Origin: a virus
IMG/VR virus record: IMGVR_UViG_3300034375_011295
Length of the DNA: 34,865 nucleotides
Strand: one strand, 5' to 3'
The first letter of the stretch is position 1. Every line of letters starts with the position of its first letter. Shown here in pieces: positions 1 to 27,937 of this stretch. The notes under the pieces were generated by a model. It did not search any database. It saw only the letters and a list, made by a program, of their open reading frames with translations, and was not told where the DNA came from. The translations under genes were made by a program, and so were the position numbers.

Positions 1-127
1 CAGATGAATTTATAAAAGAAAGTAAAAATACTCATAAAAACTTAAAAAATTATATTGCCAGATTGAAAATAGAAGAAGTTATTTAATTAAAAAAAATATT
101 GTAATCATTTTTAAAAAGAGAGGAAAA
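1..127. repeat. Terminal overlap identical to 34739-34865 (circular closure or terminal redundancy). Bases 1-86 duplicate the 3' end of CDS 34495-34824.
   Basis: Read directly: the first 127 nt (cagatgaattta...aaaaagagaggaaaa) recur base-for-base as the last 127 nt of the window. Confidence 0.95.
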
Positions 128-1294: not shown

Positions 1295-1876
1295 TTAACC
1301 TATAAATCTTCTACCAGTTGTCAAATCTTGCATATATTTTTTGCCCTTATTTTGTTCTCTTAATCTTTCCATTTTTTCTTTTTTACTTCCAAAAAGTATT
1401 TGATCTTTTTTCCACATAAAGTCATCAAATTTACCAAAATTTCGTCCTTTGCTATCGACTGCTTCTAAATAATAACCATTGCTATTTAACCAATTATAAA
1501 GTTTATCTTTACGATTAAGTCTTACAATAGTACTTCTTTCCTCTGGAGTTCTATCTGGAAGTTCATTTAATAATTTTTCAAAATTATTTTTATGCCAAAA
1601 TTGATTCACTATTTTTTGTAATGGATTTTTTACTCTTATGCTAACTTCTTCTTTTTCTAACTTTTTAATCCATTTTTTTGGTATTGGAGTAATATAATTT
1701 TCTTTAGCGTGTATTTTTAATTTTATCTTTCTTAACTTATCGCCATTTCCACGTACTCTTATTACTTTACTACTCAATCCAGTAGTTTTTTTCACTTTTG
1801 CTTGAGCTTTTTTACTTGTTGCCAGATAGACTGCTCCTCCAATTGCACCAAGTCCTAATAATGTTTTTGCATCCAT
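1295..1876 (-). CDS. Leader-bearing protein 1 (193 aa): shared N-terminal TM leader plus a basic domain of unknown function
   Basis: Residues 1-35 (MDAKTLLGLGAIGGAVYLATSKKAQAKVKKTTGLS) match the N-terminus of 11600-12124 in 32 of 35 positions and resemble that of 2478-3389. The remainder is unrelated to either. Confidence 0.8.
   Translation of the reverse strand: MDAKTLLGLGAIGGAVYLATSKKAQAKVKKTTGLSSKVIRVRGNGDKLRKIKLKIHAKENYITPIPKKWIKKLEKEEVSIRVKNPLQKIVNQFWHKNNFEKLLNELPDRTPEERSTIVRLNRKDKLYNWLNSNGYYLEAVDSKGRNFGKFDDFMWKKDQILFGSKKEKMERLREQNKGKKYMQDLTTGRRFIG
1772..1876 (-). repeat. Leader cassette copy 1 (codons 1-35)
   Basis: By my manual alignment, 92/105 nt match 12020-12124. Nine of the 13 differences are synonymous third-position changes. 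Confidence 0.85.
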
Positions 1877-1885
1877 AATTTTACC

Positions 1886-2476
1886 TTAAAATTTACCTTT
1901 TAAAAATTGATTCCAAACTAAATAACCACCAACCAAAGCAGTTGCAACCTTTACACCATTGCCAACACTTGCCAGATTGAAAGAGCCGATTGTTTTTTCT
2001 CCTCCCAGAGTTTCCACGTGGATAAAAGCATCAATTTGATCCAGACTTCTCCAGCCAAAATTTACAGAGTCGCCAAAATTTCCCTCAATCGTATTAATTT
2101 TACTGCCCTCGACGTAATTTGTAAAACCGACGTGTCCAGTGCCTTTTGTTCCACCTCTTTTTCCCCAATCAATAAAAAAAACTGCCCCTTGAGTAGCAAT
2201 TTTATTGACTGCAATATTAGATTTTTTTGCATTTGCTAAAAATAAGTGAGTTGATTTTGTTGCAGGTAAAGGATTTTGAACTGCGAAATCTTTACAAGTT
2301 TCATCAACAATCATTGACACAAATTCAGCACACCAAGGATCAGGAGTTGGCTCTCCACCAAAATATGACTTAATTTTATCAACACATTTGGATCTATTCG
2401 GAGTATTTTTATCCTCTTTACATCCATTCCATTGACTTGCATTATAAATTAATCTCTCTCCGAAAGTCGATGACAT
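1886..2476 (-). CDS. CHAP / NlpC-P60-like peptidoglycan hydrolase with a C-terminal membrane anchor (196 aa)
   Basis: Catalytic-type Cys in PWCAEFVS, His in GTGHVGF, then IEGNFGDSV, as in CHAP and TIGR02594-like cell-wall hydrolases. C-terminal helix VKVATALVGGYLVWNQFL is followed by KGKF. Confidence 0.65.
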   Translation of the reverse strand: MSSTFGERLIYNASQWNGCKEDKNTPNRSKCVDKIKSYFGGEPTPDPWCAEFVSMIVDETCKDFAVQNPLPATKSTHLFLANAKKSNIAVNKIATQGAVFFIDWGKRGGTKGTGHVGFTNYVEGSKINTIEGNFGDSVNFGWRSLDQIDAFIHVETLGGEKTIGSFNLASVGNGVKVATALVGGYLVWNQFLKGKF

Positions 2477-2477
2477 T

Positions 2478-3389
2478 TTAACCTCTTTTTTTCTTTTTCA
2501 ATTCGTTAGCAATCCATCTTTTTCCAATTGGATTTTGAACAGGTTTTTGGATAAACCTATCAATTGCTTTTTGTATTCTTGGATCAGCAGGACTATCAGA
2601 GCTACGATCCACAAGATAAAAATTAGCACCAAATAATTTTTTATATTTAGTAATATTTTTTTGTGCAGAATACCATTTTTCCTTAACTAATGAATCTGGC
2701 AAACTTCTGGATCTATTTCTATTCCTTTTTAAAGAAACTTCTAATGAAGTATTAACAAAAATCATTGCACAATCGTAACCTAATTTTTCAGCTAACATTT
2801 TTTTCTTTAACATTTTATCGTAATCATCTCCAGTACCATCCACAATCAGCCCTAATCTACCAGCTTCATAAGAACTTTGTTGCTTATTAGTTATCTTTTT
2901 AGCTCTACCACGTATTGAGTCCTCTCCAGCTCCAATTTTAGCCCACAAAATAGGATCTTCTTTTTCAATTTTTGCCAATTCTTTTGCATTGATATTGGCT
3001 TCAACTAATCCTCTTTCAAAAGCTAAATCAGAATTGACTATTTTCAATCCACTATGAACAAATGAATTTGATCTAACTCCTAATAATTCTTTTGCAGTAT
3101 AACTTTTTCCACTACCAGTTCCACCAGCCATAAAAACACATTTAAAAATACCTTTGTCATAAACTCCACTTAATCCATTACTCAAGCCACCAGTTTTGCA
3201 ATTATTTAATTTTTTTCCAGCACTCGAAGTCTGTTCAATCCTCAATTTTGATCCAGCAATACTGCATTGTTTTTTTCTTGAGATTTTTGTACTTTTTCTT
3301 GTTGTTTTTTTTGTTGTTGATTTTTTACTTGTAGCCAGATAGATTGCTCCACCGATAGCACCAATTCCTAATAATGTTTTTGCATCCAT
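2478..3389 (-). CDS. Leader-bearing protein 2 (303 aa): shared TM leader, basic linker and a P-loop kinase-like domain (zeta-toxin / polynucleotide-kinase-like)
   Basis: N-terminus MDAKTLLGIGAIGGAIYLATSKK. Walker A FMAGGTGSGKSY at aa 86-97. Walker B-like LIVDGTGDD. Arg-rich lid KRNRNRSRSLPD. Confidence 0.6.
   Translation of the reverse strand: MDAKTLLGIGAIGGAIYLATSKKSTTKKTTRKSTKISRKKQCSIAGSKLRIEQTSSAGKKLNNCKTGGLSNGLSGVYDKGIFKCVFMAGGTGSGKSYTAKELLGVRSNSFVHSGLKIVNSDLAFERGLVEANINAKELAKIEKEDPILWAKIGAGEDSIRGRAKKITNKQQSSYEAGRLGLIVDGTGDDYDKMLKKKMLAEKLGYDCAMIFVNTSLEVSLKRNRNRSRSLPDSLVKEKWYSAQKNITKYKKLFGANFYLVDRSSDSPADPRIQKAIDRFIQKPVQNPIGKRWIANELKKKKRG
3318..3389 (-). repeat. Leader cassette copy 2 (codons 1-24)
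   Basis: The nucleotide and peptide sequences match copies 1 and 3 through the TM helix and SKK, then diverge into a Lys/Thr-rich linker. Confidence 0.8.
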
Positions 3390-3393
3390 TTTC

Positions 3394-6036
3394 TTAATAC
3401 TCCAGTAATTTTCTTAATTTTTGAGAAAAAGTTAATTTCTTACTTGTCGCCACTTGTTTAGCACTTTTCAGATGATTAACAACTTTATTGCTCAATCCAC
3501 TTGTTTTTTTATAAGTTCTTTTTGGCTTATTTGCAAGTGTAAGTTGTACATTTTTGCTTTTATTTGAGAAGTAACCACTCATTTTCAGTAGTTCTCTCAT
3601 TTTTGCATTTGCTTTACTTTTATTTGTAAATTTATAGATTTTAGCTTGAGGATCAGAGTGTTTTCTGTTATAAGCCAACAATCTATTCATAGCAGTTTTT
3701 AAAAATGAAGTTGATCCATTGTTGAATTTTGATCCAGCTACATAATAATATTTACAATCTTTTCCAGTAAATCCGTGTATTTCATTCCCTTTCTTAATCA
3801 CATCACTATCAACAACACGAGTGCTTAATTTTATTCTATCAGATAAACCTCTATTTGCAACCAAAGTGCTTAAAATACTTTCTGGAGTAACTTCTTGATC
3901 ATAGCCAAACATCGAATCCCCTTGAGTGCTATTTCTGGCAGATACATAATAACTTTCTAAAATATCTCTAAATTTATTTACACCACTTTTTAATGACAAC
4001 CAAAGCATAGCCACCAAATTATCAGGCATTTCAGCATTTCCGAACATACTTTCTTGATTAAGGAACTCTTTAATTGATACCCCTTGCGTTCTTCTAATAT
4101 TTTCAAACTTGATAACATCTCTCAAATATGGTAACAAATCAAATTCTTTTGACAAAGTTTGGATTTTAGTCAGCACTGGAATAGCTTTTAAAATTCTATT
4201 TGTATAATCTTTAGCACCCTCGATCAATTCTTCGGATGGAAGAATTTTTGCAAGTAATAAATTTTCTAAATTATTTTTTCCAGCAGGAGTAAGATTTCCG
4301 TCATTTGTCAGCCAAATTGGACTATTTGAACTTGTAATAATTTCATTTTTTCGCAAGACATCAATCACAACTTTTTGATTTTTGTCTTTTGAAACAACTT
4401 GATTGAAAGTTTCATCATCCTCGCCCTCAAATATTTGAGCAATTTCCTCAAATCCTTTTTGGCTTAATGATTTTGCTAAACTTAAACTATTTGTATTTTG
4501 ATCTTTGGCTCTGGATAAAGTTTCATTTAAAATTCTGGAATACCAACTGCATCTATCCATTTCAGCATTAATCATTCTCACTAAAACTGGATATTTCATT
4601 TTTTTAAATTCGGTATTATCTGAAAATCCAAACATCTGGAGTCGTGGCTTTAAATAGTCAATATATTTGTCATAATTGTTCAAGAGCTTAACTCTTTTTA
4701 ACATCATTATACGACCATTACCACCTAAAACAACATTATCTTTTGAAACAACGGACGGACCAGTCATTGCTTCTGGACTATCATTTATAAAATGATATGG
4801 CTTGAAATTAGATGAATAACTTAATACCTTATCTTTTTCAGCCGATTTTTTGTAATCTCTTTCTTGACATTGTTTTGGATATTTAGGATTCCAGTCAAAA
4901 GTCCTTTCGTCGTGTGATTGGATCACATCATCAAGTTCCATAATTACATATTTACTTGGAATTTCTTGTGATGGAGTTTCCAGAATACCACTATTTCCAA
5001 CAATTACTTTCCCTTTCGGAGCAGATTTTTTTACTACTTTTTTTGGCTCTTGGTATTCAGCACTTTGCACCATTTCAATAAAATTATCAACTGGCAATCC
5101 ACCATCTTTGACAATATTTAATATTTTCAATGCACCAGATTTTAAAGTTTTAAATAAACTTAAATTTCTATTCTTTTTTGAATAGGCATAAGTAATTCCC
5201 TCTCTAAATGGTCCATTTGGATTATTCAAACCTCCAAATGCTAAATTACAAGACAGAACATTCTTATTATCTTGGCACAATCTATTTGCCATCGTCACAG
5301 AATATTCTAAAATTTTAAATTCTTTTGGTAGTTTGTCCGATCCATAACCTTTGGATGCTTTTTCATATTCAGAAAATGTAATTATCCCACTAACATCAAT
5401 TTTTCTTTCTTTTTCTTCACTTGCTTTTTTCTCCACTTTCTTTGGCTCTGGTGATGGCTTACGAATTTTAAGAATATATGTATTATAAAAATCTTCGTAA
5501 TTAAAATTTGAACGTACCCCAAAAGGATATTCATACTCCAATTCTTTAGCCACTTTAATAGCATCTTTCAAGTTTTTAAATTTAATGTTATGGCTTGGAA
5601 TAGTTTGATTATATTCTGTAATATTCAAAACATATTGACCATTCCCATAAGTGTCCTCATTCACTCTATATTTTTTACTTTCAAAATAAACATTACTCCC
5701 AGTGCCTAACTTTCTAATAGGTTTTATATTTGTAGATCTTTCTTTTCCCCCACTTGCTTTTTTTTCGACTTTTTTTGGCTCTGGAGCAGTCTTTTCTTTT
5801 TTTAGACTTGCAGGACGTTTTACCCTCGAAACTCTTTTTGTAGGACTTTTCTGTGCGTCGTTTTTTTGAGGAGTGGCAGATTTTTTGTCAAAATCAGCAA
5901 ATAAACGAGAAATATCCACTTCCAAGTCTTTGGCAATGGATAAAATCTCATTTTTTATTTCTTTAGCTTCATTTTCCGAAAGTTTATGAAGTTTTTTGTT
6001 GTAATCATTTACTAATTCTTCTAAAAAATCCACCAT
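3394..6036 (-). CDS. Large multidomain (polyvalent-type) protein with a ParB-superfamily (DdrB-ParB-like) core (880 aa)
   Basis: aa ~362-450 read VIMELDDVIQSHD..NPKYPKQCQERDYKKSAEKDKV...GPSVVSKDNVVLGGNGRIMML. This fits the xSHD / QxRD / GNGR pattern of ParB-fold domains in phage and plasmid polyvalent proteins. Lys-rich linkers PEPKKVEKKAS occur twice and QEPKKVVKKSAP once. The C-terminus carries KKTSGLS. Confidence 0.5.
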   Translation of the reverse strand: MVDFLEELVNDYNKKLHKLSENEAKEIKNEILSIAKDLEVDISRLFADFDKKSATPQKNDAQKSPTKRVSRVKRPASLKKEKTAPEPKKVEKKASGGKERSTNIKPIRKLGTGSNVYFESKKYRVNEDTYGNGQYVLNITEYNQTIPSHNIKFKNLKDAIKVAKELEYEYPFGVRSNFNYEDFYNTYILKIRKPSPEPKKVEKKASEEKERKIDVSGIITFSEYEKASKGYGSDKLPKEFKILEYSVTMANRLCQDNKNVLSCNLAFGGLNNPNGPFREGITYAYSKKNRNLSLFKTLKSGALKILNIVKDGGLPVDNFIEMVQSAEYQEPKKVVKKSAPKGKVIVGNSGILETPSQEIPSKYVIMELDDVIQSHDERTFDWNPKYPKQCQERDYKKSAEKDKVLSYSSNFKPYHFINDSPEAMTGPSVVSKDNVVLGGNGRIMMLKRVKLLNNYDKYIDYLKPRLQMFGFSDNTEFKKMKYPVLVRMINAEMDRCSWYSRILNETLSRAKDQNTNSLSLAKSLSQKGFEEIAQIFEGEDDETFNQVVSKDKNQKVVIDVLRKNEIITSSNSPIWLTNDGNLTPAGKNNLENLLLAKILPSEELIEGAKDYTNRILKAIPVLTKIQTLSKEFDLLPYLRDVIKFENIRRTQGVSIKEFLNQESMFGNAEMPDNLVAMLWLSLKSGVNKFRDILESYYVSARNSTQGDSMFGYDQEVTPESILSTLVANRGLSDRIKLSTRVVDSDVIKKGNEIHGFTGKDCKYYYVAGSKFNNGSTSFLKTAMNRLLAYNRKHSDPQAKIYKFTNKSKANAKMRELLKMSGYFSNKSKNVQLTLANKPKRTYKKTSGLSNKVVNHLKSAKQVATSKKLTFSQKLRKLLEY

Positions 6037-6039
6037 TTT

Positions 6040-6258
6040 TTATTTCCTTTTTAATCTTGCTTTTAATTTTCTTGCTCTCAATTTTGGAGAAGTGTTCCAC
6101 GCTTTTTTCATTGCAGAACTTCTTTGAGCTTTTGCACCTTTTTTTCTCCATCCACATTTTGAAAGTTGTTTGGCAGAATATGGATTACCAGTTTTAACTA
6201 AACTTCTACCAGCGACTTCGCAAACTGCCGACACTCTTTTTTTTCTTTTCTTTGGCAT
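6040..6258 (-). CDS. Highly basic small protein, putative DNA-binding/condensing (72 aa)
   Basis: About one third of residues are Lys/Arg (MPKKRKKR... KLRARKLKARLKRK) and Glu37 is the only acidic residue. AGGAGG RBS (ataggaggcaataATG). Confidence 0.55.
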   Translation of the reverse strand: MPKKRKKRVSAVCEVAGRSLVKTGNPYSAKQLSKCGWRKKGAKAQRSSAMKKAWNTSPKLRARKLKARLKRK

Positions 6259-6270
6259 TATTGCCTCCTA

Positions 6271-6528
6271 TTACTTTATAAACAAATTTGATTGCAATAT
6301 AATTTGTTCCTCTCCATTCAAAAATCTTTCTCCTAATTGTAGCCAAGAGCTTTTTGTGAGGATTGTTCCTAATCTTGTTCCTGACTGATCAATTATATCA
6401 TTAATTTGTGTCATTACTGACTGCAATTTTTCTTGTTTTTGCTTTTCAGCTTGTTCCAAGATTTCTTTTGCTCTTGCTTCATTCATTGTTGGATTTTCGA
6501 TTTTTGTTATTTTTTGTTTATTAGACAT
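6271..6528 (-). CDS. Hypothetical protein (85 aa)
   Basis: ORF preceded by the TTTAAAGAGAGGAA leader motif. No domain recognised. Confidence 0.7.
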   Translation of the reverse strand: MSNKQKITKIENPTMNEARAKEILEQAEKQKQEKLQSVMTQINDIIDQSGTRLGTILTKSSWLQLGERFLNGEEQIILQSNLFIK

Positions 6529-6558
6529 AAATTCCTCTCTTTAAAAAATTAAAAAAAA

Positions 6559-7065
6559 TTACTTTCTATAATACCACCAAGTTCCAATTGCACCACCAAC
6601 GAGTAAAATCGCCAGAAGTGGATTGAAACTTGCCACTTGTGGAGATCTTTGTCTGTATGCTTTCTGAAATTTTGCCCAGTAATCCAATCCATCAGCATTT
6701 GGATTGTAATGTCCTTGATTATATGCAATTACTGACTTTTTCAAATCAAAGTTATATCTTTTGTATTGATGCAAAAAATACATAGTACCCAATTTTAAGT
6801 TATAAACTGGATTGTACATTTCATTAGTCGAGGCAGTTGGAAGTCTGAGCCACCTTTCAGCATCTTTTTTAGCTGGATCAGTCATTTGCATAAGACCCTT
6901 TGCCGAACTACGAGTATTTTTTGCCTTTGGATTGTAAGTTGATTCCACAAAGCAAATAGCAGTAACAATATCAGCAATTTTATAAGGATCAACCCAATTA
7001 TATTTATTTTGCTTCATCCAATTTGCAGTTTGGAGGGCTAAACTATGTACTTGTTTCTCTGTCAT
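6559..7065 (-). CDS. Lytic transglycosylase (SLT domain) with a C-terminal membrane anchor (168 aa)
   Basis: SLT motifs: catalytic E-S in FVESTYNP, GLMQMT, and AYNQG. C-terminal helix FNPLLAILLVGGAIGTWWYYRK. Confidence 0.8.
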   Translation of the reverse strand: MTEKQVHSLALQTANWMKQNKYNWVDPYKIADIVTAICFVESTYNPKAKNTRSSAKGLMQMTDPAKKDAERWLRLPTASTNEMYNPVYNLKLGTMYFLHQYKRYNFDLKKSVIAYNQGHYNPNADGLDYWAKFQKAYRQRSPQVASFNPLLAILLVGGAIGTWWYYRK

Positions 7066-7331
7066 TCGTCGTTATTTACACCTAATTTCAATTGAATTTT
7101 AATTAATAATTGCTCTATTTTGTCAAGTTTATCATCTACTTTTTTTAACTCATCTTTTTTTGAGATTATATCTTGTTTTATAAGTGCAATATCAGTTTTC
7201 ATTGCATTTATATCTGTTTCGGCTTTTGTTTTTCCTTGAATTAACCAAGTTCCAATTCCAAGAATTATGACTTGTAATATTCCAATTGCCCAAAAAAAAG
7301 CATCTTTTAATAAACTTGTTTGATCAGCCAT
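7062..7331 (-). CDS. Single-pass membrane protein with a coiled-coil tail, holin-like candidate (89 aa from the ATG at 7331)
   Basis: The track ORF extends to 7364 and overlaps the upstream gene. The internal ATG at 7331 gives MADQTSLLKDAFFWAIGILQVIILGIGTWLIQ plus a heptad-rich tail. Its stop overlaps the SLT gene start (ATGA). Confidence 0.45.
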   Translation of the reverse strand: MADQTSLLKDAFFWAIGILQVIILGIGTWLIQGKTKAETDINAMKTDIALIKQDIISKKDELKKVDDKLDKIEQLLIKIQLKLGVNNDE

Positions 7332-7338
7332 ATAGTTA

Positions 7339-7914
7339 TCATTCCTCAACATTAAAATCAGCAATATTTATAGAATTTAGTTCTTCTATTGTTGTTGAAT
7401 TATTTATTGCATTTCTTTTGTTAGAAAAAGCACTTTTCAAAGTAGCATAAACAGTTCCAAAACCTACTCCAAACTCTGCAAATTGTTGAGCTGTAAATTG
7501 CCTTTGATTATTAGAACTATCTGTTATATAATAATCTGTTATTGCACCACCTGAAATAGTGTTTAAACTAATCCAATCGCCTATATTACCTTTTGTGTTT
7601 TCATCTAAATTAAAAGTAAATAAATTATAAGTATAGCCTTCATCTAATTTACTTTGATAATTAGCTTGTAACTCGGATAATTTAGAGTTTTTTGCCTCTT
7701 TTAATTGCTTTTCTGTTAATACAGAATTATAGTCTATGCCTTCACCTGTTAATATCCAATTATTAGGAACAGACCCACCGATATTAGAAACCCAATTATT
7801 ATACCTTTCAACTTGTTCAGCAGTCAATTCGATATACCTAACACCTCTTTCATTTTCTGGTATTTGATTTATTGGTGTTGTTGTGTAAATATTTAATATA
7901 TTATCAAAAATCAT
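7339..7914 (-). CDS. Hypothetical protein adjacent to the fibre genes, possible fibre-assembly or accessory protein (191 aa)
   Basis: Position immediately downstream of the fibre-like genes. The function is a guess from context only. Confidence 0.6.
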   Translation of the reverse strand: MIFDNILNIYTTTPINQIPENERGVRYIELTAEQVERYNNWVSNIGGSVPNNWILTGEGIDYNSVLTEKQLKEAKNSKLSELQANYQSKLDEGYTYNLFTFNLDENTKGNIGDWISLNTISGGAITDYYITDSSNNQRQFTAQQFAEFGVGFGTVYATLKSAFSNKRNAINNSTTIEELNSINIADFNVEE

Positions 7915-8132
7915 AATATTTCCTCTGTAATTATTTCAAATGTAATCGGCTCACCTAATACTACTTCTACACCCTCATCATAAATAATGTAATAGAAGTT
8001 ATCTATTTGACTAAAGCTATAATTAACCCAATAAATAGAAGTTCCATTCGGCACTGGCAAACCTTTATAATCGGCACATTGTTGCCTTGCATTAATTGCC
8101 TCTTGTTCAGTTTGATATGTATATCCCAACAT
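7911..8132 (-). CDS. Hypothetical protein (73 aa)
   Basis: ORF translationally coupled to both neighbours by overlapping start and stop codons. Confidence 0.65.
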   Translation of the reverse strand: MLGYTYQTEQEAINARQQCADYKGLPVPNGTSIYWVNYSFSQIDNFYYIIYDEGVEVVLGEPITFEIITEEIL

Positions 8133-9640
8133 TAATAAACTCCGTAATATGAATTTATATTAGTATTTATTCCGTTCACATTAGCACCCTCGTAAGAAGT
8201 ATAAATAATATGTTCTTGAATATTGCCATTAAAATACCCGCTGGTTAATTCTCCGATTAAACCTATGCTATATCCATACGTAGTCCCTGCAGAAGTCGTA
8301 GCTGAACCACCAACTAGATTAAGAGTTAATGAACTATTGTTTTTATAAATGTAAATATTTAACCCACTATCATATAAAATATTATATATATTTTGGTTAG
8401 TATCTTGCGAAGTCGAACTCGTTTCGTATATCCTATAAGAACTACCATCTCCCCAATATGTGCTGTTTTTATTAGATGTATTAAATCTAAAACCACCCCA
8501 CCCTGTTAAAGCCGCACCACTACTTGCTACAGAACCTGAAACATTATATGTAACTCCTGTAGCTGATGCTTTTAATGTTTGAAAAATAGAATATCTAGCT
8601 GGCTTTGTTATTGCAGTCCCTAACCCTAAACTATCATTAGAGCCGTCGAATTGTAAAGTCGGCTTTCCGTTTTCTAATAAAACACCTGTCGAACTATCAT
8701 AAATTTTAGGTTGATTTGCAGTAGTGGATTGAGTAGCATTTCTATTGTTTCCACTTTGGTCGTACCAAGTCGTTACAAAACCATTTGTTCCACTGCAAAA
8801 ACTTGCTAATGAAGTCGTATCTAATTCATTACTAACAAATCCAATATCTTGCTCTGCATTATCACTTGCACGTCTTACTCTTATTGTTGAACCTGAATAA
8901 TTATATCTTAACTTTCTTAATGAATAAGCAACTGCACTACCTGAATAATTATCTAATAATAGTTTTTTAGGTAAACCTATTCTTCCTTTTTCATTATTTA
9001 ATATTTTTAAAGCTCCCTTTGGAATTGCTATATCGTAAGCAATTATATTATCCATTAATCCTGAATAATAGTTTAAATACGTACTTGGTTGGTATCTTAA
9101 AACCCCAATACTTACATATTTATTACTATTTATATTTCTATGAGTTCCGCTTGCTGTTCCTATTGAAGAGCCGTTTACAAACGCTTCTATATTTGAGGTC
9201 GTTCCATTACCTGAACATATACCTCCGAACGAGTTCCAATTTGTATCAACTGTCCCACCAGTAATACCGATATTAAAATCATTAGAACCAATACCAAAAT
9301 AATATTGCGATGATGCTAAGGACGTTCGAAACCAAGGAGCCGTGTTTGATGCCCCTCCGCTGTCTGAATTAAATGGTCTGTAAAAAGTGGAAGACGATGT
9401 TGGTTTTATCCAATATATAAAAGAAAAGTTAGTTTTAAAAAAATCGTCGGTTGTGTTATTAAAATTAATTCTAGTCGAAGTGCCATTAAAAGAGCCTGCA
9501 CTGTTACTTTGATTAAATTCATTTACACCGTAAGTTAATGAATTGGCAGTAACCGCAATATTATTAATAGAACTATCTGACGAACTATTGTCTAATTTAA
9601 AATATATTTTTTTTCTTTTTATATAACTACGACCTATCAC
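8132..9640 (-). CDS. Receptor-binding / fibre-like protein with a LamG (concanavalin-like lectin) type domain (502 aa)
   Basis: FSFIYWIKPTSSS and YFNGNIQEHIIY resemble LamG-fold strands. The central stretch AVAYSLRKLRYNYSGSTIRVRRASDNAEQDIGF..TTWYDQSGNNRNATQ..ANQPKI is a block I recognise from phage fibre and sugar-binding proteins. Confidence 0.5.
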   Translation of the reverse strand: MIGRSYIKRKKIYFKLDNSSSDSSINNIAVTANSLTYGVNEFNQSNSAGSFNGTSTRINFNNTTDDFFKTNFSFIYWIKPTSSSTFYRPFNSDSGGASNTAPWFRTSLASSQYYFGIGSNDFNIGITGGTVDTNWNSFGGICSGNGTTSNIEAFVNGSSIGTASGTHRNINSNKYVSIGVLRYQPSTYLNYYSGLMDNIIAYDIAIPKGALKILNNEKGRIGLPKKLLLDNYSGSAVAYSLRKLRYNYSGSTIRVRRASDNAEQDIGFVSNELDTTSLASFCSGTNGFVTTWYDQSGNNRNATQSTTANQPKIYDSSTGVLLENGKPTLQFDGSNDSLGLGTAITKPARYSIFQTLKASATGVTYNVSGSVASSGAALTGWGGFRFNTSNKNSTYWGDGSSYRIYETSSTSQDTNQNIYNILYDSGLNIYIYKNNSSLTLNLVGGSATTSAGTTYGYSIGLIGELTSGYFNGNIQEHIIYTSYEGANVNGINTNINSYYGVY

Positions 9641-10698
9641 GACACTACACTTCCAGCTATATTAATATTACCTGTATCATCTTTAAATATTTCCAATACT
9701 AAACGTTCAGATGTAGTAACTGGAATTGCACCTCCAAAGTTATCCATTGAAGTTAATCCGTTTGTTACTGTTCTTGTTGCACCACTTGGAATAAATACTA
9801 ATAAATGTCTAATTCCTGTTTGTAAATCTGTTGGATCTACTGCTGTTAAATTAAAATCAGCATCGCCTGCAACTTCTACATAATAATTAACAGATAAATC
9901 AATACTATTAGCTAAAGAAGTTGAAGCTGTTGCAGTCGTCCACGTAGCACCACCACTGCTTTCATTTTGCCAACTAATTGTTGTTCCGTTGCTCTTTAAT
10001 ACTTGTCCATTTGTTCCAACTGCTAAACGTGTTGTACCACCTGCAGAACGATAAATAATATCTCCCTCCGTAGTCATTGGATCTGCAAACCCACTTGATG
10101 CATTTTCCCAATTAACTGTAGTTGCAGTTGCTGTTAAAACTTGTCCATCAGTTCCACGTGCTAATCTTACCCAATCAGTTCCATTAAAATATAATACATC
10201 ACCCTCTGAAACTCCAGCAATATTATTTAAAGCAGTTATTACATTTGCATTATCTGTTACATCAGCTCCATCTTCTACATTTAAAATAGTCCTTGCTTGA
10301 CTTGCTGAAACTTGTTGAACTGCACCAGACCCACCTGCGTGCCTTCCTAAAAAATGGTTTGTAGCAATATCTTCGATTTTACCAAGTGTTACATTACTAT
10401 TTAATATTTTAGCAGTTGTTACTGAAGTATCAGCTAATTTTCCAGTAGTTACATTCAAATCAACAAGTTTTGCAGTAGTTACAGAATTATCAGCCAAGCC
10501 CAAAGTAACGAAATTTCCACCATCAACATAGTCGAAAGTGGAATCTACTCTCAAAGCTCCAGTCGAGCCAGTTGCACCAAGATAATCAGCAGTTGCAAGG
10601 ACATCAACTTTAACTTTTCCATCTGAAACACCTCCACCACCACCTGAATTTGTCAATCCATTTTGGGTAAAGACATTAATTATACTACAACCATTCAT
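9637..10698 (-). CDS. Fibre / spike protein with 11-residue VTTxKLxD repeats (353 aa)
   Basis: Four tandem 11-aa repeats: NSVTTAKLVDL, NVTTGKLADTS, VTTAKILNSN, VTLGKIED (nt ~10369-10494). A duplicated block GT(D/N)GQVL..(T)T(V/I)(N/S)W(E/Q)N(A/E)SSG. Gly run GGGGGV near the N-terminus. Confidence 0.6.
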   Translation of the reverse strand: MNGCSIINVFTQNGLTNSGGGGGVSDGKVKVDVLATADYLGATGSTGALRVDSTFDYVDGGNFVTLGLADNSVTTAKLVDLNVTTGKLADTSVTTAKILNSNVTLGKIEDIATNHFLGRHAGGSGAVQQVSASQARTILNVEDGADVTDNANVITALNNIAGVSEGDVLYFNGTDWVRLARGTDGQVLTATATTVNWENASSGFADPMTTEGDIIYRSAGGTTRLAVGTNGQVLKSNGTTISWQNESSGGATWTTATASTSLANSIDLSVNYYVEVAGDADFNLTAVDPTDLQTGIRHLLVFIPSGATRTVTNGLTSMDNFGGAIPVTTSERLVLEIFKDDTGNINIAGSVVS

Positions 10699-11278
10699 AA
10701 CCGACTAAACCTCTTATTTTTAATATTCTTGAAAGTGGATGATTAATATTCCTCTTTCTTATAAAAATTCCATTGCCCTCTCTTTGCGATCCACTCAATC
10801 CATTGTTTGTGTTTCCAGCATAAGTCATCACATAACCACCACCTAAAACTTCTTTCACTCTTTCAATATGACCTGACCAGCTTTTTGCAGATTTCCAAAC
10901 AATTAAATCGTGTTTTTTAACTTCGTATGGAACTTTCTTATTCAATTTTTTAGCATAATTAAACATTGCTTGACTTGATCCAGACTTAACCATTGGATTT
11001 TTTACTTTTGTACAAGCAGTTTTATTGATTTCTTGAGTAGCCATCTCATAAGCCCAATATTGATAGTAATAACAATATGGATAGCCCTTTAAACCTCCTC
11101 CAGTTTTAATAATATTTTCGATAATGACACCATCGTTATTGCCAGTGGCTTCGATAGTGCCGATTACCGAAAGACAATAACGTTCAGAAGCAGAGAGGAG
11201 TTGCTCCGAACTTGTCATTACCATAAATTTCTCTTGAGAGAAAGAAAATAAAGTCAATATGTAAATAAGTAAAATCAT
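10685..11278 (-). CDS. Secreted NlpC/P60-CHAP-like peptidoglycan peptidase (197 aa)
   Basis: Signal-like N-terminus MILLIYILTLFSFS. Cys in GYPYCYYYQYW, His in SWSGHIERV, then TYAGNTNNG. Confidence 0.55.
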   Translation of the reverse strand: MILLIYILTLFSFSQEKFMVMTSSEQLLSASERYCLSVIGTIEATGNNDGVIIENIIKTGGGLKGYPYCYYYQYWAYEMATQEINKTACTKVKNPMVKSGSSQAMFNYAKKLNKKVPYEVKKHDLIVWKSAKSWSGHIERVKEVLGGGYVMTYAGNTNNGLSGSQREGNGIFIRKRNINHPLSRILKIRGLVGYEWL

Positions 11279-11598
11279 ACTAAAATTACATAAACTCCTA
11301 AAATAATTGCTCCAATGATCATTGCAATTGACTTCGCAATATCCCCTAAAAATTGAGTTTGTCCTAATCTTTCCATAACTGAAAATTCATCATCAGATCC
11401 AGCAAAAATTCTTCTTATTGCTTTATTTTCAGCAAAGAATTTTATTGATTCAATAGTCAATCTATACCATACAACAAATAAAAGTACAATCAAACTAATG
11501 ATTGTCAGTATTTTAGTGTCTGGTGCTAAAAATTGTATTGTTAGAGTTCCTAACAACAAAACAATCCATTGCCAATATTTTTTGATGTAGTTGATCAT
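11275..11598 (-). CDS. Three-TM small membrane protein, holin-like candidate (107 aa)
   Basis: Three hydrophobic helices (WQWIVLLLGTLTIQFLA, ILTIISLIVLLFVVWY, IAMIIGAIILGVYVILV). Lies directly upstream of, and overlaps, the peptidase gene. Confidence 0.5.
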   Translation of the reverse strand: MINYIKKYWQWIVLLLGTLTIQFLAPDTKILTIISLIVLLFVVWYRLTIESIKFFAENKAIRRIFAGSDDEFSVMERLGQTQFLGDIAKSIAMIIGAIILGVYVILV

Positions 11599-11599
11599 T

Positions 11600-12124
11600 T
11601 TATACCCCAGTATTCCACTTTTGTTTTTTTATTGTTACTTTGTCAATTTCAGATCGTGAGAGAAAGTCTTTTTTTATTTCCTCTGCATATTTTTTTGTTG
11701 GTGTTAAATGATAATACCATACTTTTCCTTTACTATATGCTTTGACTAAATATTCCCATTTGCCATCTCCATATTTTTTATATTCTCCACCACTCAATCC
11801 AGATTGAGATTTGCTTAAAATACTCCATCCAGTTCGTGCCATTTCTGGAATTGATTTTTTCGCATAGTCTTTCTTCTTATCAGCTGGAAGATTGTCATAA
11901 ACTTGTAAAATCATATTTGCAGTTTGCACATCTACGATTTTTCCACTTATTCTTTTATATTGATGCTCTTTTACAATTTCTCTTAATTTCTTTATTTTAG
12001 CTGGATCTTTAGTGCTATCACTCAATCCAGTAGTTTTTTTTACTTTTGATTGAGCTTTTTTGCTGGTGGCAAGATAAACTGCTCCACCGATAGCACCAAG
12101 TCCTAATAATGTTTTTGAGTTCAT
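11600..12124 (-). CDS. Leader-bearing protein 3 (174 aa): shared TM leader plus an unknown domain
   Basis: N-terminus MNSKTLLGLGAIGGAVYLATSKKAQSKVKKTTGLS. A second GLS lies at SQSGLSGG between two halves. Confidence 0.8.
   Translation of the reverse strand: MNSKTLLGLGAIGGAVYLATSKKAQSKVKKTTGLSDSTKDPAKIKKLREIVKEHQYKRISGKIVDVQTANMILQVYDNLPADKKKDYAKKSIPEMARTGWSILSKSQSGLSGGEYKKYGDGKWEYLVKAYSKGKVWYYHLTPTKKYAEEIKKDFLSRSEIDKVTIKKQKWNTGV
12020..12124 (-). repeat. Leader cassette copy 3 (codons 1-35)
   Basis: See 1772-1876. The peptide is conserved, mainly with synonymous substitutions. Confidence 0.85.
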
Positions 12125-12410: not shown

Positions 12411-12718
12411 TTTAAAAATCCTTGTTTATTCAAATAATTTTCAATGTAAGTAAGTCCTATTGATCTTAAAGTTTTATTTACCTTGCTAAAGTCTAATTTT
12501 GAAATTAAATTAGCAAGTGGCTGGAACTTTGCATTAATATTAAAATCCATATATACTGGAGTCGTAGTCCTAATTGGAACATAATTAACTGCAATATTTT
12601 TTAAATCTTTCACTTTTGCCAGAACATCATCTTTTGTTCCTGCGAATTGTAATCTTTTTCCAAGATTAATCAATTCTTTCGGTGTGTCTTTTGCTATTTT
12701 AACCATTTGGAACTCCAT
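12407..12718 (-). CDS. Hypothetical protein (103 aa; may start at the internal Met5)
   Basis: ORF overlaps both neighbours by a few nt, consistent with translational coupling. Confidence 0.65.
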   Translation of the reverse strand: MEFQMVKIAKDTPKELINLGKRLQFAGTKDDVLAKVKDLKNIAVNYVPIRTTTPVYMDFNINAKFQPLANLISKLDFSKVNKTLRSIGLTYIENYLNKQGFLK

Positions 12719-13505
12719 CTAAATCTGAATCTGGAATTGTTTGATTTGGAGCTTGTTGTGCTTGCACCATTTGAGGAGCAGGGGATTGACCAGCATTTTT
12801 GAAACTCGCCCAAATTGACGGAAGTTGTGGCAGTACTTGAGCCACCAAACTAAACATTGCTTGTTGTTGTTGTGGAATTACCTCATCAGACAAGCCCTTA
12901 TTTTCTTTTTCAAGTTCTTTCACTCTTTGTGATAAAGAATTGATCTTTTCATTTAGATTTTCTTTTTCCCAATTCCATCTTTTTTCAGATTCTTCTCTGG
13001 AAACTCTATTTAAAATATTGTCTGAAAGTCCAGATTCACTTTCTTTTTTTAACCTTGCTATTTCATCATTAAGTCTTCTTATTTCATCATTTGCTGAATG
13101 TAATTGATTTTCTAATACTTCTATTACTTTATTATTTTGAGCTTCCATTTCTCTTTTCATTGCACGATCTGAATAAAAATTTTGTGCTGGATTTGGAGCA
13201 AAAAAATCATAATTTGGATTGTCTGCCAAACTATCAACACTATCTTCATTTCTTGCTGGTACAGTCATTTCAGTTACATAAACATCCACACCGTCTTCGA
13301 TTTTGCACAAATGAAGTAAAGTTCCTTGTTTAAAATTGTGATCTCCATTCATTACCCAATCTTCAAAAGTACCATCACATTGCGAAATTAATATTTCAGA
13401 TGGAAGTGAAGTTGGACGACCTTTCCAGACTATTGCATCATTCTGGCTTTCTTTTGGATCAACTTTTCCAATTTTGTAATTTTTATTTTTTTCAAATTTT
13501 GTCAT
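12699..13505 (-). CDS. Coiled-coil, scaffold-like protein (268 aa)
   Basis: Central heptad-rich region (EIRRLNDEIARLKKE ... INSLSQRVKELEKENK). Gln/Pro-rich tail. Two GLSD sites. Strong TTTAAAGAGAGGAA leader. Lies next to the capsid candidates. Confidence 0.45.
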   Translation of the reverse strand: MTKFEKNKNYKIGKVDPKESQNDAIVWKGRPTSLPSEILISQCDGTFEDWVMNGDHNFKQGTLLHLCKIEDGVDVYVTEMTVPARNEDSVDSLADNPNYDFFAPNPAQNFYSDRAMKREMEAQNNKVIEVLENQLHSANDEIRRLNDEIARLKKESESGLSDNILNRVSREESEKRWNWEKENLNEKINSLSQRVKELEKENKGLSDEVIPQQQQAMFSLVAQVLPQLPSIWASFKNAGQSPAPQMVQAQQAPNQTIPDSDLDGVPNG

Positions 13506-13529: not shown

Positions 13530-14171
13530 TTAAACCCAAAATTCAACTATTGCTTGAACTGGATAATTTTGATATGTACTTTCTTCTGAAACGTATTGAG
13601 CAAATGCAGTTGAAATTTCAATATTGCTTACTCTTTCTACTTCTTTTCCTACATTTATGCAAGTATTCATTGGAATACCAAGTGATTTAAAACCTTTATT
13701 GCTTTCAGATCCAGCAGGACCATTGATAAACCCTTGATTGATTAATTCTCCATCAATTGTAATCGCAGGACGGAAAAAATTTGGCTGGAAAACCACTGGC
13801 ATAGCACCATTCAAGTAATTTGATTGTGGATATGACCTTGTTACAGTCGTTCCATCAATTAATTGAGATCCTATAATTACATCAGCAGTTGCAGATAAAC
13901 CAGCAATCGTTGGATCAAAAGCAAAAAAGCTAACTTGATGCACAAATAAGCAGTTTTTAGATTTCAATGGAGTTAGATCTGAAAAAGGAGTTAAACTTCT
14001 TACTTCTGGGCTTGTTGTGGCATCTGCCATAGCTTGTAAGTAAGCAATTAAGCCATTATCAGCATCTGTAATTGTTACTCCAGATTTTGATGTTAAATAA
14101 GTGGCATAAAAAGTATTTGGGTACTTTTCACGCATTCCACTTAAATAAATTGGCGTATTATTATCGAACAT
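13530..14171 (-). CDS. Beta-rich structural protein, capsid candidate (213 aa)
   Basis: Position in the structural core. No helices or TM evident, and the composition is typical of beta-sandwich proteins. The function is inferred from context. Confidence 0.4.
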   Translation of the reverse strand: MFDNNTPIYLSGMREKYPNTFYATYLTSKSGVTITDADNGLIAYLQAMADATTSPEVRSLTPFSDLTPLKSKNCLFVHQVSFFAFDPTIAGLSATADVIIGSQLIDGTTVTRSYPQSNYLNGAMPVVFQPNFFRPAITIDGELINQGFINGPAGSESNKGFKSLGIPMNTCINVGKEVERVSNIEISTAFAQYVSEESTYQNYPVQAIVEFWV

Positions 14172-20249: not shown

Positions 20250-20263
20250 TTTTCTACCTAATT

Positions 20264-27874: not shown

Positions 27875-27905
27875 TAAAAAAAATTCATAAAAACCATAAA
27901 AAAAA

Positions 27906-27937
27906 TTTGCTATAATGAAACTTTTTTAGTAAATTTG
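27906..27937 (+). promoter_or_regulatory. Promoter candidate B: TTTG-N20-TAAATTTG, also readable as an extended -10 TGCTATAAT
   Basis: TTTG at 27906-27909, TGAAACTTTTTT box at 27916-27927, TAAATTTG at 27930-27937, TGcTATAAT at 27908-27916. Lies in the 134-nt gap (27875-28008) before 28009. Confidence 0.45.

Follow-up and report, generated by a model that had tools for sequence, protein, structure and literature searches.

Three genes in the window (the whole 34,865-nucleotide stretch of viral DNA that was analysed) begin with the same N-terminal leader, and it is somewhat better than an even chance (about 0.55) that this leader is a modular tag for targeting and release by cleavage, built on a weak membrane anchor and loading variable cargo into the virion in the manner of the capsid-targeting sequence (CTS) of phage T4.

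A leader shared by three unalignable proteins

The consensus M[DN][AS]KTLLG[LI]GAIGGA[VI]YLATSKK forms the N-terminus of three minus-strand ORFs: 1295-1876 (193 aa), 2478-3389 (303 aa) and 11600-12124 (174 aa). In ORFs 1295-1876 and 11600-12124 it runs on into AQ[AS]KVKKTTGLS, and in the kinase ORF 2478-3389 it is followed by a different, basic Ser/Thr-rich linker:

1772..1876, minus strand: leader copy 1, of ORF 1295-1876; 35 codons, MDAKTLLGLGAIGGAVYLATSKKAQAKVKKTTGLS
3321..3389, minus strand: leader copy 2, of the kinase ORF 2478-3389; first 23 codons, MDAKTLLGIGAIGGAIYLATSKK
12020..12124, minus strand: leader copy 3, of ORF 11600-12124; 35 codons, MNSKTLLGLGAIGGAVYLATSKKAQSKVKKTTGLS

Past the leader the three ORFs are mutually unalignable, continuing as a K/R-rich protein, a P-loop kinase and a protein without known identity. 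The original prediction had described both the shared leader and this divergence, an observation that was correct in every detail. An independent repeat search recovered 105-nt copies at 1772-1876, 3285-3389 and 12020-12124 with identities of 100%, 74% and 88%, respectively; the similarity is a real, recurrent element, far above chance. Between copies 1772-1876 and 12020-12124 there are 13 differences in 105 nucleotides, and nine of the 13 are third-position changes that keep the amino acid, exactly as had been counted by hand (dN 0.039, dS 0.55; NG86). The likeness in DNA begins at the ATG, upstream of which the regions differ, and ends directly after the GLS[DN] codons.

Architecture and conservation of the leader

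The leader comprises a short N-terminus, a Gly-rich segment of 17 uncharged residues in which a conserved G10xxxG14 is followed by Y-L-A, a lysine-rich juxtamembrane stretch of constant length and, at positions 33-35, G-L-S. This position of GLS is kept throughout, except in the kinase and in a variant with a 2-residue deletion. Diverged variants (46-66% amino acid identity; L019, L023, P0081-84 and type 3) all run to exactly 35 residues at GLS and retain GxxxG and the basic spacing, with M1, G10, A24, K27 and G33-L34-S35 invariant. Among 15 distinct leader copies, the variable sites at codon positions 1, 2 and 3 number 7, 2 and 19 (third positions, 19 of 28), and the mean dN/dS is ~0.10. The leader peptide is under purifying selection. 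This had been foreseen, together with the claim that recent duplication or gene conversion played no part; that second half needs one qualification: in each of the relatives L019 and L023, two leaders within one genome differ by 1 nt in 108. Because these paired leaders are nearly identical in DNA, duplication or gene conversion is also at work, and recombination or duplication accounts for some of the conservation. In ORF 20069 of L023, the likeness is limited to the first 18 nt.

The hydrophobic segment is marginal (four Gly, mean Kyte-Doolittle 1.4, crude Hessa sum +2.7 kcal/mol) and may be a peripheral or protein-binding helix instead of a true transmembrane helix. The basic stretch and the terminal GLS of the predicted layout are upheld, and its transmembrane helix is only marginally hydrophobic. 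Relatives carry a second leader type, MPTKKNIGKIIKRSATGLSD, without a hydrophobic segment; therefore, a membrane anchor is not obligatory for the role of the GLS system.

Exchange of cargo modules at the junction

Searching 1.84 billion protein representatives gave 15 matches to the leader, all 15 of them N-terminal, identical in architecture and different in cargo. The same N-terminal-only pattern was seen in 18 metagenomic contigs or loci, and in the two collections together the leader heads some 27 unrelated clusters of cargo modules. Leader ORFs occupy three fixed, hypervariable places, while the surrounding genes are 90-100% identical across contigs. The original prediction had likened the leader to the T4 CTS and proposed looking for it on other cargo in relatives; one leader on ~27 unrelated cargos at fixed places in near-identical genomes supports that analogy. 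The places concerned in the window are as follows:

1295..1771, minus strand: cargo of ORF 1295-1876, a K/R-rich 158-aa module at hot-spot A
1886..2476, minus strand: CHAP peptidase, hydrophobic anchor at its C-terminus; conserved left-hand neighbour of hot-spot A
2478..3167, minus strand: P-loop kinase cargo (Zeta_toxin/AAA_33; phrog_12810/2071)
3168..3188, minus strand: double junction GLS-N-GLS of the kinase ORF (codons 68-74), abutting the conserved kinase domain
11600..12019, minus strand: hot-spot B cargo of ORF 11600-12124, made up of the modules m1 (codons 36-111) and m12 (codons 112-174)

Hot-spot A is bounded by the CHAP gene and gene 773-1291, and its cargo 1295..1771 had no match in the family search. 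The kinase gene 2478-3389 is present in some relatives and absent in others. Kinase homologues in unrelated myoviruses begin at query residue 74-75, directly past GLSNGLS, and module m2 corresponds to the entire phrog_9437, the match to which starts 4-5 residues past the junction. Cargo modules are autonomous, two of them matching independent protein families that start just past the junction. They are combined combinatorially, the junction always being GLS[D/N/S/G]; module m1 of ORF 11600-12124, for instance, ends in SGLS, and a 398-aa four-module "polyprotein" holds a fossil of the leader's basic half inside. Cargo is exchanged as cassettes at the leader/GLS junction. The range extends over the kinase, a TreK-like module, DUF7222 and many modules without known identity. 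The expectation of enzymatic cargo fits the Zeta_toxin/AAA_33 kinase, the one recognisable enzyme among the window's three cargos, and not the other two.

GLS[DN] in structural proteins

GLS occurs 17 times against 3.6 expected, and GLS[DN] 8 times against 0.46; neither count was reached in any of 2000 shuffles. GLS[DN] is confined to structural proteins, and no GLS was found in the 3187 aa of the non-structural ORFs. In orthologues at 29-67% identity GLS[DN] is kept despite diverged flanks. The motif acts at the peptide level, because its codons vary from site to site. In distant relatives LSD is the most enriched tripeptide (10 against 1.6 expected in L019; 10 against 1.3 in L022). The observation that the leader ends in GLS has therefore proved meaningful, the motif standing at every module junction and also in these proteins:

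3394..6036, minus strand: 880-aa polyvalent-type protein with a DdrB-like ParB domain; GLSD at residue 730, GLSN at 847
12699..13505, minus strand: coiled-coil, scaffold-like protein; GLSD conserved at two places, residues 159 and 204
17086..17589, minus strand: structural protein; two hydrophobic segments, then a conserved SGGLSD
22850..23479, minus strand: structural protein with a C-terminal hydrophobic anchor; short variable N-terminal peptide ending in GLS before D, residues 11-14

In the 880-aa protein the C-terminal 31-aa tail past GLS is conserved and the middle is swapped among relatives.

Genome and virion type

Positions 1..127 are identical to 34739-34865, closing a 34.7-kb circle; the window holds a single genome of 34,738 bp, either circular or circularly permuted.

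1..127, no strand: terminal overlap, identical to 34739-34865
6559..7065, minus strand: SLT lytic transglycosylase; C-terminal Gly-rich hydrophobic anchor in a PRD1 P7-like arrangement
14161..15276, minus strand: candidate double-jelly-roll-like capsid protein, from a structure model
33510..34190, minus strand: 226-aa P-loop ATPase (AAA_25-like), candidate packaging ATPase, at the end of the structural block

The capsid-protein model, whose pLDDT is only 65, matches the capsid proteins of PRD1 (P3), STIV, PR772, Wip1 and GC1 in Foldseek with TM-scores of ~0.2. Family searches of the genome gave no match to a portal, a terminase or an HK97 capsid. Hydrophobic anchors, in ~14 proteins, are confined to the structural block. 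The virus is probably a tailless, membrane-containing phage, which accords with the virion or viral membrane that had been proposed as the leader's destination. As far as computation can check it, the original interpretation holds throughout.

A candidate protease and a proposed mechanism

21806..22639, minus strand: transglutaminase-fold protein, candidate maturation protease; invariant Cys92-His127-Asp142

The Cys-His-Asp triad of this protein and a TLS[DN] at residues 173-176, which opens its disordered tail, are invariant in 9 homologues. In the structure model the core is folded confidently and the tail is disordered from TLSD onward; the closest solved folds to the core are putative or known cysteine proteases, LapG among them. 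It is our best candidate for the GLS protease. A role as a cell-wall peptidase, as with PeiP/PeiW, is just as possible for it, and the cutting could alternatively be done by the two CHAP proteins or a host enzyme.

For membrane insertion, topology, virion incorporation, cleavage, the identity of the protease and the function of the cargo, we infer the following course. As the protein is made, the hydrophobic segment would anchor it in the cytoplasmic membrane of the host or on its surface, with the basic flank and the cargo kept cytoplasmic in line with the positive-inside rule. Like the phage's other anchored structural proteins, the tagged protein would be swept into a phage-specific membrane, which would end up as the membrane inside a double-jelly-roll virion without a tail. 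The maturation protease, for which 21806-22639 is the best candidate, would cut between G-L-S and the following [D/N], so that every cargo module comes free of the anchor and of its neighbours; it would also trim the scaffold-like protein, two membrane proteins at their short N-terminal peptides, and the ParB-type polyvalent protein at its tail. Being conserved both as peptide and as DNA, leader and junction would double as recombination handles, which would explain why modules are exchanged and concatenated precisely at GLS. The topology does not fit easily: from the basic flank, the cargo is expected on the cytoplasmic side, and the "pinched-off vesicle" model of PRD1 puts that side toward the capsid, not the DNA-filled lumen, so that delivery into the next host is left unexplained. 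A PM2-like model, with the membrane wrapping the DNA, would be a better fit.

Alternative explanations

The leader might instead anchor non-virion accessory proteins, uncleaved, to the membrane of the infected cell, and GLS would then just be a hinge that gives the modules flexibility; such proteins might act, for example, in host takeover, superinfection exclusion or the organisation of assembly sites. A hydrophobic segment followed by a basic flank would suit this role, as would the accessory nature of the cargo genes, whose presence varies among relatives, and the virion location of the leader proteins is itself only inferred. We nevertheless consider it unlikely, since conserved GLS[DN] is also found in core structural proteins (the scaffold-like protein and the N-terminal peptides of two membrane proteins) and in none of the non-structural ORFs, the GLS-joined modules are autonomous protein families, and the leader genes lie within the structural operon. 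Less probable again is that the 105 nt serve mainly at the DNA level, as a recombination handle or cassette boundary comparable to moron boundaries, with no targeting role for the peptide. The extent of the likeness from the ATG to exactly past GLS[DN], the swapping of cargo precisely at that boundary, the 1-nt distance between leaders inside L019 and L023, and the 18-nt likeness in ORF 20069 would all be expected of such a handle; a dN/dS of ~0.1, the 19 third positions among 28 variable sites, the retention of length, GxxxG, basic spacing and GLS at 46-66% amino acid identity, and the many different codons for GLS at other sites would not. A recombination handle could coexist with the targeting-and-release tag, adding a second role without displacing the first.

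The leader also has the N-terminal Gly/Ala-rich, weakly hydrophobic segment of a Sec-type secretion signal or SAR-type signal anchor, such as the SAR domains of some endolysins, which would take the cargo to the periplasm and be removed by host signal peptidase or released from the membrane. This is very improbable: the N-terminal region (MDAK) is not basic, the five lysines after the hydrophobic segment reverse the charge order expected of signals and SAR anchors, no small-x-small site follows the hydrophobic core (-3 is Tyr), an ATP-dependent P-loop kinase is among the cargos, and the second leader type entirely lacks a hydrophobic part.

Comparison with known systems

The T4 internal proteins are diverse, and the conserved CTS is their only common part (PMC3012670). 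Like our leader, the CTS of IPI-IPIII, Alt and related proteins, which is removed by the gp21 prohead protease, is a short conserved N-terminal sequence on unrelated proteins. It ends at a maturation-protease consensus that recurs in scaffold and other structural proteins, as GLS, the putative cleavage site, does here; in both systems the cargo genes are hypervariable among close relatives and the leader alone is conserved (PMC3012670). The second, short basic leader of the relatives, MPTKKNIGKIIKRSATGLS with the predicted cut before D, is closer still in form. The CTS and our leader share no sequence similarity. The CTS has ~10 aa, whereas the leader has 35, with a Gly-rich hydrophobic anchor and a fixed-length lysine-rich spacer; the T4 site is L/I-x-E, as against G-L-S before [DN]; an HK97-type capsid, portal, terminase and S77/U9-type prohead protease were not detected in this genome; and cargo modules here also occur end to end, in strings resembling polyproteins.

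Processing of DdrB-ParB proteins and their packaging into phage heads have been described (PMC5512222). A DdrB-like ParB domain marks many phage polyvalent proteins (Iyer et al. 2017, PMC5512222; P1 DdrB), and the neighbouring 880-aa protein, which carries one, sits among virion genes and has modules swapped among relatives. The PHROGs matched by the kinase cargo consist of very long multi-domain proteins, and processing to separate units is predicted there as here. In contrast to polyvalent proteins, neither a zincin-like MPTase nor any other embedded peptidase was found here, many effectors have a small ORF to themselves that starts with the common leader, and a defined tripeptide motif marks the junctions.

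PRD1 membrane proteins are recruited via the host cytoplasmic membrane, and a route via a phage-specific membrane patch would be a natural sorting mechanism (PMC6356626). As with PRD1-type anchored virion enzymes (e.g. the P7 transglycosylase), the structural module here is rich in small anchored proteins, and its SLT and CHAP enzymes have terminal hydrophobic anchors of leader-like composition; the genome differs in being circular, ~35 kb long and equipped with DnaB-type replication genes in place of a protein-primed polymerase. To our knowledge, no shared exchangeable anchor cassette and no maturation cleavage motif has been described for tectiviruses or corticoviruses. Adenain-type proteases of eukaryotic double-jelly-roll viruses, polintons and virophages offer a parallel, in that a cysteine protease would likewise cleave numerous virion precursors at a short consensus containing Gly while a double-jelly-roll capsid matures. 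Their fold is Ulp1/adenain (clan CE), whereas our candidate is transglutaminase/papain-like (clan CA-like), and the cleavage motifs differ. Within the double-jelly-roll lineage, maturation proteases are mentioned in the literature consulted solely for the eukaryotic members (PMC6260650). The cargos themselves are most likely accessory effectors of the kind represented by the T4 internal proteins and the polyvalent proteins.

A leader shared by unrelated proteins

Three ORFs on the minus strand begin with the common sequence M[DN][AS]KTLLG[LI]GAIGGA[VI]YLATSKK and continue into different protein parts, here called cargo:

1295-1876, minus strand: leader copy at 1772-1876; K/R-rich cargo with no family match
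2478-3389, minus strand: leader copy at 3285-3389; cargo a Zeta_toxin/AAA_33 P-loop kinase
11600-12124, minus strand: leader copy at 12020-12124; cargo with a function not recognised by family searches

In ORFs 1295-1876 and 11600-12124 the common start is prolonged by AQ[AS]KVKKTTGLS, and the same three 105-nt leader copies were recovered independently by a repeat finder. The original prediction, which described three ORFs with a common leader followed by unrelated sequence, was correct in every detail. Its hand alignment was also reproduced exactly: copies 1772-1876 and 12020-12124 differ at 13 of 105 nucleotides, nine of these differences being silent third-position changes (dN 0.039, dS 0.55). 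The DNA upstream of the copies is not common to them, and across all leader copies the DNA similarity ends directly after the GLS[DN] codons.

The leader carries exchangeable cargo in related genomes

Relatives were collected by scanning JGI metagenome contigs with leader-derived patterns, which recovered 18 syntenic contigs (related contigs are designated by L numbers below). When 1.84 billion protein representatives were searched exhaustively with HMMER, only 15 proteins matched the 36-residue leader, all at residues 1-35 and each with a different continuation; the zero candidates returned by a word-indexed protein search with the 41-aa leader were an index artefact, since the exhaustive search later gave 15. 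The leader was absent from the representative bacterial and archaeal genomes searched, and these searches gave no prophage or host assignment. Leader ORFs lie at three fixed places, where the bordering genes are 90-100% identical across contigs and the cargo is different:

Place 1: interval between the CHAP gene (1886-2476) and gene 773-1291
Place 2: interval between gene 12407-12718 and gene 11275-11598
Place 3: interval between the gene for an 880-aa protein (3394-6036) and the CHAP gene; occupied by the kinase, which is missing in some contigs

The original prediction had proposed a search of relatives for the leader on other cargo. When 26 leader proteins were cut at GLS|[DNSG] and the pieces clustered, about 27 unrelated cargo modules were found behind one leader, and their use is combinatorial: five different modules occur after module m1, three different modules occur before module m2, and modules m5 and m6 are found behind different leaders. 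The 398-aa product of L003 4201-5397 is a string of the leader and four modules, and between two of these modules lies a relic of the basic half of the leader (KKAQAKVKKTTGLSS). The relatives also carry, each on several cargos, a second hydrophobic leader variant, MKTSEMIWGGLIATAIFIELNPKARKKVRQFTGLS[DN], and a 19-aa purely basic leader without a hydrophobic part, MPTKK[TN][MI]GKIIKRSATGLSD (MPTKKNIGKIIKRSATGLSD), both of which are absent from the window. These two extra leader types, both ending in GLS[DN], are found in the following ORFs:

L002 748-1311, L006 7402-7698 and L005 44-574: one extra type
L009 912-1301 and L012 728-1150: the other extra type

Swapping may affect other genes as well. 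The 502-aa protein encoded by 8132-9640 (minus strand), with a weak ArabFuran-catal-like match, is 42% identical to L001 3584-5062, where the neighbours are 93-97% identical, and looks from these figures like a swapped receptor-binding or host-range cassette. In L022, the CHAP protein and the 20264-like and 17611-like proteins are fused as one 1252-aa protein.

Selection and recombination both act on the leader

Among 15 distinct leader copies, variable sites fall on the three codon positions as 7/2/19, and the mean pairwise dN/dS is about 0.10. The claim that the peptide is maintained by selection is borne out by these values. The accompanying view that recent duplication or gene conversion is not responsible needs a qualification: the two leaders of L019 differ from each other by a single nucleotide, as do those of L023, so duplication or gene conversion also occurs. 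The leader is shaped both by selection on the peptide and by recombinational homogenisation, and the conserved leader DNA is probably the homology that permits cassette exchange exactly at the junction. Between two leader ORFs of L023 lies an ORF (20069-20290) in which only the first 18 nt (MNVKTI) are leader-like before the sequence diverges; this ORF resembles a scar left by recombination at the cassette's 5' end.

Diverged variants from more distant genomes (L019, L023 and the variants P0081-P0084) are 46-66% identical, and in all of them the leader spans exactly 35 residues through GLS. In the six variants compared, M1, G10, A24, K27 and G33-L34-S35 are invariant, G14 is retained except in the type 3 variant, positions 17-18 are an aromatic-aliphatic pair, and the lysine pattern is conserved. 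The hydrophobic segment and GLS are always equally far apart, which suggests that geometry constrains the leader; one example would be a protease that works at a defined distance from a membrane surface. We put at about 0.9 the probability that the leader is a modular N-terminal tag, maintained by selection and attached to exchangeable cargo.

The genome points to a tailless phage with an internal membrane

The first 127 nt of the window (1-127) recur with 100% identity as its last 127 (34739-34865), which is the overlap left by assembling a circular genome. In metagenomic contigs gene 773-1291 is joined to the ATPase gene 33510-34190, with L007, L010, L014 and L015 bridging the ends. Hence the window represents a single complete genome, circular or circularly permuted, of 34,738 bp, with a G+C content of about 30% and no tRNAs. 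Megablast with 12.5 kb gave no match among GenBank phages, and scans of IMG/VR with the capsid candidate and the leader alignment gave no relative. An identical 35-nt sequence (TGTAATCATTTTTAAAAAGAGAGGAAAACAAAATG), containing a ribosome-binding site and ATG, is present at 100-134 and 34463-34497, preceding two different back-to-back plus-strand ORFs (132-731 and 34495-34824). AT-rich 72-nt repeats lie at 27875-27946 and 34389-34460, and all these elements may be promoter or leader regions that were duplicated.

The structural genes form one block:

23479 to 773, then 34190 to 32959, minus strand: structural block

No Pfam or PHROG match to a portal, terminase, HK97 capsid or prohead protease was found in this block. 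Hydrophobic, mostly Gly-rich segments are present in about 14 of its proteins and in none of the replication-side ORFs. The SLT transglycosylase (6559-7065) and the CHAP peptidase each have such a segment at the C-terminus, an arrangement as in the PRD1 membrane enzyme P7. The 226-aa P-loop ATPase (33510-34190) has only a generic family match, AAA_25, and a PDB sequence search with it gave nothing useful. The AlphaFold model of the 14161-15276 product (six-sequence alignment, pLDDT 65) is an all-beta, two-barrel structure that is matched best by double-jelly-roll capsid proteins from viruses with membranes: in the PDB those of PRD1 (P3), STIV, PR772, vaccinia (D13), PBCV-1 and FLiP, and in BFVD those of Bacillus phage Wip1 (E = 5e-7), STIV and Gluconobacter phage GC1. 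[quoted passage not shown] Taken together, the missing portal and terminase matches, the anchored proteins, the anchored SLT and CHAP enzymes and the double-jelly-roll-like capsid model point to a tailless phage with a predicted internal membrane, of a lineage as yet unrecorded in the collections searched. The anchored structural proteins and enzymes and the small P-loop ATPase are features shared with the PRD1- and PM2-like phages of the Varidnaviria.

Two side observations concern these proteins. C-terminal hydrophobic segments of a leader-like flavour, with about 10 aliphatic residues, GG or GxG, an aromatic residue and then basic residues (e.g. LLVGGAIGTWWYYRK, AVAVGGGIWYAKKNKLF), occur in 6559-7065, 1886-2476, 20264-21802, 19764-20057, 22850-23479 and 773-1291, and judging by sequence such segments may be a common signature for entry to the viral membrane. 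The capsid candidate holds an inserted domain of about 85 aa at residues ~264-352 (..GDTITGGTSSATGVIV..). Tailed phages of Rhizobium, Brucella and Pelagibacter have a domain 40-57% identical to it in proteins labelled "neck" or "structural", and so do many 600-aa metagenomic proteins; in representative bacterial and archaeal genomes, the capsid protein matched through this domain only. It looks like a decoration domain exchanged across virus realms.

The GLS motif is enriched and conserved in structural proteins

GLS occurs 17 times in the window against 3.6 expected from within-protein shuffles, and GLS[DN] eight times against 0.46, neither count being reached in any of 2000 shuffles. All GLS occurrences lie inside the structural block, with none in the 3187 residues of ORFs outside it. 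A DNA-level signal is ruled out by the varied codons over the 17 sites (GGA/GGT/GGC, TTG/TTA/CTT/CTA and AGT/TCT/TCA/AGC/TCG/TCC), so the signal resides in the peptide. Both GLS[DN] sites of the coiled-coil, scaffold-like protein 12699-13505 are kept in orthologues despite diverged flanks, as is SGGLSD after a hydrophobic hairpin in 17086-17589. In 22850-23479 a short, variable N-terminal peptide ends at the conserved site (MGLS|DK, IGLS|DK, FGLS|DK), and GLS[DN] sites near the C-terminus of the ParB-type 880-aa protein persist in orthologues. Not every GLS qualifies as a site: where GLS lies in a folded domain with A, S, T, K, E or G next, orthologues show GLT, GKT or GFS. The motif is, on the sequences compared, better written as G-L-S-[DN], or as x-L-[SA]-D in distant relatives.

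Among the more distant relatives, LSD is the single most enriched tripeptide in L019 (10 against 1.6 expected), L022 (10 against 1.3) and L021 (6 against 1.4), and G-L-[SA]-D is recurrent in L023 and L025. The leader is not a trait of the entire virus group, as L021, L022 and L025, the relatives furthest removed from the window, are without leader ORFs at the hot-spots yet still enriched in LSD or GL[SA]D; the putative cleavage motif therefore appears to predate the leader-cassette system. That an autonomous protein begins at the GLS junction is shown by two independent observations: in Pelagibacter, Methylophilales, Agrobacterium and Ralstonia myoviruses the kinase homologues start at query residue 74-75, directly after GLSNGLS, and module m2 matches the entire 98 positions of phrog_9437 from four to five residues after GLS. 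The GLS[DN] pattern is the signature that would be expected of a maturation-protease site, and we know of no alternative that would explain both the conservation of the motif in core structural proteins and its role as a universal module joint. We consider it likely that GLS[DN] is a proteolytic site.

A transglutaminase-like protein is a candidate protease

The protease-type folds detected were two CHAP domains and the transglutaminase-like protein 21806-22639 only. The latter matches PF01841 and is kept in all relatives, the most distant included. In nine homologues its Cys92, His127 and Asp142 are invariant, and so is T-L-S-[DN] at positions 173-176. The AlphaFold model has a confident core at residues 10-166 (pLDDT 75-96), followed by a disordered Cys-rich tail beginning at TLSD, which is the picture expected of a self-trimming protease; from this model, TLS[DN] is a possible self-cleavage site. 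A PDB sequence search gave nothing useful. The nearest solved structures are 3isr and 3kd4 (putative Bacteroidota cysteine proteases), transglutaminases, the site-specific protease LapG and CPR-C4, and matches also include the cell-wall endoisopeptidases PeiP and PeiW. The core fold and the conserved Cys-His-Asp are shared with LapG/BTLCP-type cysteine proteases. The maturation proteases of eukaryotic double-jelly-roll viruses and polintons are of the adenain type, with a fold different from that of this candidate. The support for 21806-22639 as the protease cutting at GLS is circumstantial, and we regard this role as tentative, with the odds somewhat against it.

A possible route for cargo into the virion

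The functionally closest system is the capsid targeting sequence (CTS) of T4: a conserved CTS is all that the varied internal proteins have in common, and it guides them to the scaffolding core before the head protease takes it off (PMC3012670). The original prediction had drawn this parallel, and three of the defining features of the T4 system are present: a leader common to otherwise unrelated proteins, an end motif (here with putative cleavage at GLS[DN]) that recurs conserved in the scaffold and other structural proteins, and hypervariable cargo, here at three hot-spots between conserved genes. By contrast with T4, there is no Pfam or PHROG match here to the CTS, the gp21 protease, an HK97-fold head, a portal or a terminase; given this and the double-jelly-roll-like capsid model, the element is an analogue and not a member of the T4 system.

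The neighbouring 880-aa protein, rather than the three leader ORFs, fits the pattern of the polyvalent proteins of Iyer et al. 2017 (PMC5512222): it matches PF18763 (DdrB-like ParB, E = 1.6e-17), lies among virion genes and has modules that are swapped in relatives. Unlike polyvalent proteins, neither it nor the leader ORFs have a zincin-like MPTase or other peptidase domain. This protein (3394-6036, minus strand) is itself a cassette carrier. In its relatives L007 1-1563, L014 376-2727, L018 47-2182 and L013 3-1682, the first 100 or so residues and the C-terminal tail ..GLANKPKRTYKKASGLS|NKVVNHLKGAKQVATSKKLTFSQKLRKLLEY are kept while the entire middle is replaced, sometimes with loss of the ParB domain, and its modules are separated by repeated PEPKKVEKK linkers (DNA repeats 5026-5050, 5404-5473 and 5737-5806). 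The part of the tail that follows GLS is conserved and may act as a targeting peptide at the C-terminus.

In PRD1, membrane proteins enter the host cytoplasmic membrane first and reach the virion membrane through a phage-specific patch (PMC6356626); with capture of this type, a weak anchor would suffice as an address tag. The leader would thus anchor its cargo and sort it to the virion or the virion membrane, and a cut at GLS would free the cargo and separate concatenated modules. The charge distribution of the leader, with a neutral MDAK before the hydrophobic segment and five lysines after it, and the presence of an ATP-dependent kinase as cargo suggest that the cargo faces the cytoplasm. 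A Sec signal peptide or SAR anchor was rejected on inspection of the sequence, given the n-region MDAK, Tyr at -3 and five Lys behind the core. The marginal hydrophobicity of the leader is a problem for the anchor reading: of the 17 uncharged residues in the segment 4 are Gly, the mean Kyte-Doolittle value is 1.4, and a crude estimate of the Hessa sum is +2.7 kcal/mol. The SLT and CHAP enzymes have C-terminal anchors of similar hydrophobicity. A pinched-off vesicle would have its cytoplasmic face toward the capsid and not the DNA, so that co-delivery with the genome would need PM2-like DNA wrapping or another route. The existence of a non-hydrophobic leader means that an anchor is not the sole way into the GLS system. 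Weighing these points, we slightly favour a tag that directs proteins into the virion or virion membrane, and the original interpretation is supported as far as computation reaches.

To our knowledge, no leader-plus-cleavage cargo-loading system has been described for this virus lineage. The element would be one, with three unusual traits: its leader combines a membrane anchor with a spacer of fixed length, its modules are delimited by GLS like beads on a string, and its candidate protease has a transglutaminase fold. [quoted passage not shown] It is tempting to speculate, with somewhat less than even confidence, that the element is the first example, in a prokaryotic virus with a double-jelly-roll capsid and an internal membrane, of a maturation protease combined with cargo loading. 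In such a system a transglutaminase-fold cysteine protease would cut G-L-S|[D/N], and exchangeable leaders, including a weak anchor with a fixed "ruler" to the site, would load combinatorial, rapidly evolving effector modules that are released separately like beads from a string.

Implications

How proteins are selected for the internal membrane and interior of tailless membrane-containing phages is largely obscure, and the element bears on this question. It provides a portable 35-residue tag with a defined junction, which can be fused to reporters for tests of sorting and processing. In aquatic viruses of a class that is abundant yet little studied, it also brings to light a rapidly evolving group of effectors that are probably aimed at the host; among them are the kinase, ParB-type polyvalent proteins, and TreK-like and DUF7222 proteins. 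The system would have arisen independently of the internal proteins of T4 and converged on the same solution and, if it works as proposed, would be a ready-made handle to load foreign proteins into such particles.
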